Positions 50,211 through 51,036 of a DNA stretch of 64,000 nt are shown piece by piece. The DNA is from Escherichia coli (GTDB lineage Bacteria > Pseudomonadota > Gammaproteobacteria > Enterobacterales > Enterobacteriaceae). The stretch lies in the NCBI RefSeq assembly GCF_003334355.1, contig NZ_QOWP01000004.1; one strand, given 5' to 3'. Made by a program: the position numbers and the translations under genes. Under the pieces are notes generated by a model that searched no databases, was not told the origin of the DNA, and saw only the letters and a list, made by a program, of their open reading frames with translations. Every line of letters starts with the position of its first letter. Within the stretch, counting starts at the first letter, position 1.

Positions 50211-50242
50211 AAAAAAAGGCCCCTGTTGAAATTGCAGGGGCC
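50211..50242 (-). terminator. Rho-independent terminator of cutC, shared by MicL
   Basis: Minus strand reads ggcccctg-caatttca-caggggcc followed by ttttttt. Confidence 0.8.
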
Positions 50243-50517
50243 TGGTACGAGCAAGCATCATATTGGGCGACATGATGCAACGGTAAAAATCATTTGGCCT
50301 GATGGCGTTCAATGATTCCTTTCATTTCAGCAACCGCCGCCCCGTCTACGACATAACGCGAATACTCGTCCGCGTGTGCATCTGATGACATAGACAATCC
50401 TTGATTACGATAACGCATCGGTGAGGCTTGCCACGCTCCCGCGGAGCTATGGACTTCCAGCACTCCGGCATCGAGGAAGTGGTGCAGGTTTTCTGCACGG
50501 ACTCCTGCTCCGGCCAT
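50211..50517 (-). ncRNA. micL: MicL (RyeF), sigma-E-dependent sRNA made from inside cutC (5-prime end approximate)
   Basis: Minus-strand GGAACTT-N17-TCCAAT sigma-E-like promoter inside cutC at about 50520-50551; about 307 nt to the cutC terminator, matching the reported ~308-nt MicL. Confidence 0.55.
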
Positions 50518-51036
50518 AATGATTGGAGCATCACGATGGGCAATAAGTTCCATAATTTTTGATAAACCTTGCAGTGCGTCTGATTTTTGCCCTGATGTCA
50601 GCACCCGGGCAATGCCCAATTCCGCAAGATTATTGAGTGTATTTAGAGGGTTAGCGCACATATCAAAGGCGCGATGAAAAGTCACTGCCAGCGGACCGGC
50701 AGCAGCCATTATTTTTTCCATTCGTGGCATATCGACATTCCCGTCAACATCGAGAACGCCCGTCACCAGTCCAGGAAAACCTAATTCGCGGACCGTGCGC
50801 ACATCCTCAAGAATGGCGGCAAACTCACCGTCGCTGTAGCAAAAATCACCACCGCGTGGGCGAATTATCGGATGCACAGGGATCGTCACCCGCTGGCGCA
50901 CGGATTTCAGTACACCCAACGACGGCGTTAAGCCCCCCTCTTTTGGGGCTGCGCATAATTCAACTCTGTCTGCGCCGTTTTGCTGCGCCGTTAGTGCACA
51001 TTCCATGCTGTAACAGCAAATTTCCAGTAATGCCAT
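50290..51036 (-). CDS. cutC: CutC, copper homeostasis protein (TIM-barrel)
   Basis: 248-aa ORF, ATG start. Confidence 0.93.

Follow-up and report, generated by a model that had tools for sequence, protein, structure and literature searches.

The closest described system to the locus analysed here is MicL of Escherichia coli K-12 (RyeF; RF02654; b4717; Guo et al., 2014), with which it shares locus, genomic context, promoter sequence and an identical processed form, MicL-S, and from which it differs by three single bases in the coding-sequence (CDS) part, two of them changing CutC. MicL is a textbook example of how a protein-coding gene can conceal a regulatory RNA. MicA and RybB, the other two small RNAs (sRNAs) of E. 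coli that depend on sigma-E, resemble it in the make-up of their sigma-E promoters (GAACT as the -35 element, TCNNA as the -10 element and an A/T-rich region upstream) and in being Hfq-type sRNAs that down-regulate abundant envelope proteins (PMC4102768). Both are, however, free-standing intergenic genes that act on many omp mRNA targets through their 5' ends, whereas MicL lies within a CDS and 3' untranslated region (3' UTR), undergoes processing and has lpp as its one reported target. CpxQ (from cpxP) and MicL alike carry their seed and Hfq-binding terminator in an mRNA 3' UTR, and in both cases RNase E makes the short form (10.1101/341578). CpxQ is made by processing alone, whereas MicL has a dedicated promoter in the upstream CDS. 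In this respect DapZ (in dapB), a 3' UTR-derived sRNA with its own internal promoter, is comparable to MicL.

The DNA analysed here, hereafter the window, is a 64-kb stretch of an E. coli genome in which the gene order yecM-cutC is followed by torYZ, with the start of torY at 49902 and the end of the MicL terminator at 50211. The interval is almost certainly the micL locus of E. coli, with a sigma-E promoter within cutC giving rise to MicL, the repressor of Lpp. An Rfam scan of the whole window at gathering thresholds matched the MicL family (RF02654) at 50518-50211 on the minus strand over the full model (1-308 of 308), with 370.3 bits against a gathering score of 56 and E = 9e-112, so that the alignment to the MicL reference proposed as a check in the earlier note was obtained over the full length. 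The cutC CDS houses the promoter, PmicL, and the 5' 228-229 nt of MicL, as laid out below.

50290-51036, minus strand: cutC coding sequence, 248 aa plus stop, from the list of open reading frames; cutC in every matching E. coli genome.
50553-50565, minus strand: A/T-rich stretch TATCAAAAATTAT, immediately 5' of the -35 element and putatively acting as a UP-like element of PmicL.
50551-50545, minus strand: PmicL -35 element GGAACTT, matching the sigma-E -35 motif at 7/7 positions (PMC3326320).
50544-50528, minus strand: PmicL spacer ATTGCCCATCGTGATGC, 17 nt, read directly.
50527-50522, minus strand: PmicL -10 element TCCAAT, with the TCNAA-like TCCAA at 50527-50523.
50518, minus strand: published MicL start, a T (Guo et al., 2014), giving a 308-nt MicL with its 3' end at 50211.
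50517, minus strand: MicL start in RefSeq K-12, an A, with coordinates mapped by alignment, giving a 307-nt MicL.
50211-50518, minus strand: MicL primary transcript, 308 nt, the full-length RF02654 match.

A permissive Rfam scan of 49900-51700 returned MicL and a single sub-threshold match. A match of 'Betaproteobacteria toxic sRNA' to the terminator (20 bits vs 50) was dismissed as a terminator-like chance similarity, and plus-strand open reading frames across the interval (e.g. 50148-50315, 55 aa) were ignored for want of support. A generic scan for sigma-70 promoters and terminators over 49900-51300 gave nothing relevant and, with its loop limit of 8 nt, is uninformative here; it missed the cutC/MicL terminator because the loop of the latter is 9 nt and the allowed maximum was 8. 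Elsewhere in the window the antisense pair RyeA(SraC)/SdsR(RyeB) was matched by Rfam at full length, at the position expected from K-12 (14676-14820, plus strand, and 14680-14779, minus strand; 175 and 114 bits), and ES036 (CssrF) was matched in the cmoB/torZ intergenic region (46233-46275, plus strand; 45.5 bits, gathering 37.6). One Escherichia sp. locus (L024) has an ES036-like match as well, at 3567-3609 close to cutC.

The window is collinear with K-12 MG1655 1,908,424-1,972,229 at ~99% identity, and the RefSeq record of K-12 has the ncRNA micL (b4717) annotated in the homologous place, where it overlaps cutC. From 50600 to 50393 (-82 to +126, comprising the A/T-rich region, hexamers, start and first 126 nt) the two sequences are identical; the 3' 166 nt of MicL (50376-50211) match K-12 except at 50352, and the whole of MicL-S (50290-50211) is identical. 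The three substitutions all fall in the CDS part of MicL, none of them in the promoter, cleavage-site context, seed or terminator.

50392, minus strand: MicL nt 127, substitution relative to K-12, synonymous in cutC.
50378, minus strand: MicL nt 141, substitution relative to K-12, CutC E220A.
50352, minus strand: MicL nt 167, substitution relative to K-12, CutC I229V.

Of 5426 complete E. coli genomes, all but one (5425) had the cutC/MicL segment at >=95% identity; in most of the other E. coli genomes PGAP lists cutC alone under the MicL segment, which reflects a gap in annotation rather than anything novel. The lpp 5' region was likewise absent from 1/5426. Plasmid-labelled records in the same genome collection carried the cutC/MicL segment twice and the lpp 5' region three times, one of these records being 4.7 kb long with an lpp fragment at 97.9% identity. 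The sole structural difference from K-12 in the window lies between znuB and ruvB, where three tandem copies of a 134-nt unit (35794-36121; 97-nt spacing, 91-92% identical) carry an Rfam naRNA4 (CssrE) match at 35847-35922; K-12 is ~194 nt, or two units, shorter, which looks like REP/BIME copy-number variation.

MicL is an already known feature with an experimental description, a curated Rfam family and an annotation in RefSeq K-12, and the interpretation given in the earlier note is a rediscovery. Its two wider suggestions, that the 3' end of cutC is used twice and that phenotypes once assigned to cutC belong to the sRNA, had both been published by Guo et al. (2014; PMC4102768). The present analysis itself provides the sequence, the family match, the identity with K-12, the purifying selection on the hexamers and MicL-S and the predicted lpp duplex; the literature is the source for sigma-E dependence, the start site, processing by RNase E, binding of Hfq, repression of lpp and the copper phenotype.

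Direct reading of the minus strand within cutC gave the GGAACTT, 17 nt and TCCAAT described in the earlier note, in the order AAAAATTAT-GGAACTT-ATTGCCCATCGTGATGC-TCCAAT-CAT-TATGGCC. Its interpretation of these as a sigma-E-type promoter is borne out by the match of GGAACTT to the sigma-E -35 motif, by the conservation of the hexamers and by the published K-12 promoter. GGAACTT is the -35 motif of sigma-E promoters, in which A/T-tract UP-elements are also known (PMC3326320). The pattern GGAACTT-N15-18-TCNAA occurred once in the 64-kb window on both strands taken together, with 0.12 occurrences expected by chance, and at least one match was present in 11/100 dinucleotide-preserving shuffles of the window. 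By itself the PmicL motif is therefore only mildly unusual, and its significance comes from position and conservation. A K-12 fragment spanning PmicL from -65 to +20 is sigma-E-inducible and drives GFP nearly as strongly as PmicA and PrybB (PMC4102768); the corresponding segment of the window (50583-50499) is 100% identical to it.

The published start at 50518 lies 226 nt upstream of the cutC stop codon (50292-50290). The distance of about 307 nt between promoter and cutC terminator noted earlier agrees with the 307 nt of RefSeq K-12 micL and the 308 nt of published MicL; a start near 50515 was right as to location, the exact position being off by 2-3 nt. The classical copper-sensitive alleles, mapped from their 1995 numbering on the assumption that the old cutC open reading frame began at the present Met103, fall at 50585 (A146G/K49R; -67) and at 50534 (G197A/R66H; -16, in the PmicL spacer). 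These positions agree with those stated for A146G (-67) and G197A (between -35 and -10) in PMC4102768 and confirm the register of the published start. PmicL differs slightly in spacing from its relatives, the distance from GAAC to TC being 23 nt with TC at -9, compared with 22 nt and TC at -11 in micA and rybB; put otherwise, the spacer is 17 nt vs 16 nt in K-12 micA and rybB, and the -10-to-start distance is 2 nt shorter (-10 elements TCCAA in PmicL, TCTGA in micA and TCTTA in rybB). Such spacing is probably within the tolerance of ECF sigma factors. The simplest explanation of the oddity is a 1-nt uncertainty in the start site.

Conservation between species was assessed with a CutC protein scan of species-representative genomes, which yielded 56 cutC loci from other species. 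The Enterobacteriaceae among them represented Escherichia, Citrobacter, Salmonella, Trabulsiella, Pseudocitrobacter, Lelliottia, Leclercia, Kluyvera, Pluralibacter, Superficieibacter, Silvania, Kosakonia, Franconibacter and Siccibacter. Motif and MicL were distributed as follows, the MicL Rfam scores in distant genera owing much to cutC homology and not being independent of cutC presence, for which the within-gene contrast described below controls:

Enterobacteriaceae, 46 loci: GGAACT[T/A]-spacer-TCCAA at nt 485 of cutC in 46/46; MicL above gathering in 46/46.
Other Enterobacterales (Morganella, Edwardsiella, Limnobaculum), 7 loci: motif in 0/7; MicL in 0/7, even at E <= 10.
Distant MAGs (Salinivirgaceae, Prevotellaceae, Spirochaetaceae), 3 loci: motif in 0/3; MicL in 0/3 at gathering.

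Three of the loci, all from long-read chromosome assemblies, had a broken cutC frame and intact PmicL and MicL (L051, L052 and L054 (cutC at 2501-3245); source set Leclercia adecarboxylata NCTC13032, Citrobacter amalonaticus AUH_CA_2023_1 and Kluyvera genomosp. 3 YDC799). We rejected the idea that the sRNA had outlived cutC in these genomes, as every break is a 1-nt indel in a homopolymer run and so probably an assembly error, not the mark of a pseudogene.

A codon alignment of 44 intact Enterobacteriaceae cutC sequences allowed the promoter to be compared with the rest of the gene. GGAACT of the -35 element was invariant in 44/44, its last T alternating with A, and TCCAA of the -10 element was likewise invariant in 44/44. 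Third positions in cutC had a mean entropy of 1.25 bits, and only 4/236 degenerate third-codon sites were invariant, three of them in the -35 and -10 hexamers (hypergeometric P = 7.4e-6 for three or more of the four motif sites, with the within-gene contrast controlling for kinship among the 44 phylogenetically related sequences), namely the A of GAA (50548, -35), the T of GCT (50527) and the A of CCA (50524, both -10). In the A/T-rich stretch two third positions were unusually conserved, 50560 with A in 43/44 and 50557 with A in 41/44 sequences, and synonymous diversity was at its lowest in cutC over ~50568-50515, a segment that takes in the UP-like A/T tract and the promoter as far as its -10 element. 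The spacer of PmicL was hypervariable between species at all codon positions and at the amino-acid level too. In the outgroups, which lack the motif, similar residues are specified by different codons (GAG CTG ... CCG CTG).

These data bear on whether GGAACTT...TCCAAT might be a chance coding motif without promoter function, its conservation reflecting constraint on the CutC protein. In keeping with such a reading are the shuffled windows that contain the motif and the conservation of Leu163 and Pro171 as amino acids even in the outgroups. Protein constraint would, however, leave unexplained the invariance of the synonymous hexamer positions in 44/44 sequences against the gene-wide mean (P = 7e-6), the use of different codons (GAG CTG, CCG) for the same or similar residues in outgroups that lack the motif, and the free variation of the amino acids between the hexamers; moreover, the identical K-12 fragment gives sigma-E-dependent GFP, and synonymous -10/-35 mutations nearly abolish MicL (PMC4102768). 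We therefore regard a chance motif as extremely improbable. The -35 and -10 hexamers of PmicL, together with MicL-S, are under purifying selection at the DNA level.

No extra synonymous constraint was found on the CDS part of MicL in the 44-sequence codon alignment (1.1-1.6 bits). The 5' 228 nt of MicL evolve like ordinary coding DNA, which argues against a conserved function or structure of this part despite its elaborate Rfam consensus structure. It is very unlikely that the CDS part (228 nt, three substitutions vs K-12) has a function of its own, be it a second target, a sponge activity or a lineage-specific processing efficiency, or, as a separate matter, that the spacer or discriminator tunes PmicL in a manner unlike micA and rybB.

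The lack of extra constraint on the CDS part, and the location of the seed and two stem-loops entirely in the 3' UTR, would also fit an 80-nt RNA made solely by processing of the yecM-cutC mRNA, as a type II 3' UTR sRNA like CpxQ, with the internal promoter idle. Published genetics on PmicL argue otherwise, as synonymous -10/-35 point mutations nearly abolish both MicL and MicL-S and reproduce the copper sensitivity of the delta-cutC strain, and no sigma-E-dependent transcript was seen upstream of cutC (PMC4102768). Northern blots published for K-12 have MicL-S lost upon synonymous mutation of PmicL, with the cutC mRNA unchanged. The selection acting on the hexamers at the DNA level, and their perfect co-occurrence with MicL-S in the 46 loci, point in the same direction. 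Processing as the only source is highly improbable, and the cutC-mRNA route to MicL-S is best seen as a minor additional source beside PmicL.

The active form of the sRNA and the elements on which it relies are the following.

50211-50290, minus strand: MicL-S, the 80-nt processed active form, starting at the last base of the stop codon and identical to K-12.
50251-50281, minus strand: stem-loop A of MicL-S, from the MFE fold.
50211-50243, minus strand: intrinsic terminator (stem-loop B), common to cutC and MicL, with a 9-bp stem, 9-nt loop and T7 tail.
50242-50272, minus strand: lpp-pairing region, MicL-S +19 to +49, the published pairing (PMC4102768).
50252-50241, minus strand: lpp-pairing core GCTCGTACCAGG, in which the mutated nucleotides +41-44 are 50250-50247.

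[quoted passage not shown] The two 3' stem-loops direct cleavage by RNase E, which needs stem-loop A to cut efficiently and in the correct place (Updegrove et al., bioRxiv 10.1101/341578). In the window both sequence and fold have 50243-50235 pairing with 50225-50217 in the terminator stem, followed by the T run to 50211. Among the Enterobacteriaceae the 3' UTR is nearly invariant from GAUUUUUACCG via the seed GUACCAGG to the terminator stem; the seed GTACCAGG is invariant in the 44 sequences, and the changes between species in the stem of stem-loop A are wobble-compatible (G-C to G-U, G-U to A-U). The last codons of cutC, the terminator loop and the DNA beyond the terminator diverge, whilst MicL-S stays nearly invariant. 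At the promoterless cutC loci of Morganella, Edwardsiella and Limnobaculum a MicL-like 3' UTR was not found, with no Rfam match at E <= 10 and nothing alignable; an Edwardsiella 'GTAC-GGCCCC...GGGGCC-T6' has a faint resemblance to the MicL 3' UTR that is merely terminator-like.

With a canonical hairpin and U-tract at 50243-50211, the conserved 3' UTR might be thought to represent the cutC terminator alone, with no regulatory RNA. Conservation, however, continues beyond the terminator for ~45 nt in the upstream direction, taking in stem-loop A and the unpaired seed GTACCAGG, and is stronger there than in the terminator loop, and direct pairing of MicL with lpp has been proven by compensatory mutations (PMC4102768), seed mutants of MicL-S having lost the regulation of lpp and compensatory changes in lpp having restored it; the probability that nothing but a terminator is conserved here is vanishingly small. 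For MicL-S as a regulator of lpp, RNAduplex placed GCUCGUACCAGG (MicL-S ~38-50) against the lpp coding sequence from +15, which is the published site. The unconstrained energy of the duplex was only modestly better than that of shuffles (23/1000 equally good), and for this reason the proof of pairing is the set of compensatory mutations already published. Across 5425 E. coli genomes the target stretch of lpp is conserved at >=99% identity. Both Hfq binding and repression of Lpp synthesis were described for K-12 MicL-S, the sequence of which is identical to that in the window (PMC4102768).

Taken with the published work, the locus may be expected to operate as follows. Under envelope stress or on entry into stationary phase, polymerase carrying sigma-E (RpoE) would recognise GGAACTT-N17-TCCAA in cutC, and transcription would start at ~50518 and end at the cutC intrinsic terminator to give the 308-nt MicL. 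The two 3' stem-loops would then position RNase E to cut between 50291 and 50290, after the G of the UGA stop codon, releasing MicL-S. Together with Hfq, the single-stranded part of MicL-S around GCUCGUACCAGG would pair with codons 6-16 of the lpp mRNA, and the ensuing block of lpp translation and decay of the mRNA would lower the load of the most abundant outer-membrane lipoprotein and so relieve the stress.

As an exercise in reading sequence the locus is a positive control, in that a validated internal promoter and its sRNA were recovered from sequence alone, and it brings no new biology. The importance of MicL is that it showed the copper-sensitivity phenotype behind the name of cutC to be that of the sRNA, and that it closes a sigma-E/Lpp feedback loop protecting the outer membrane.
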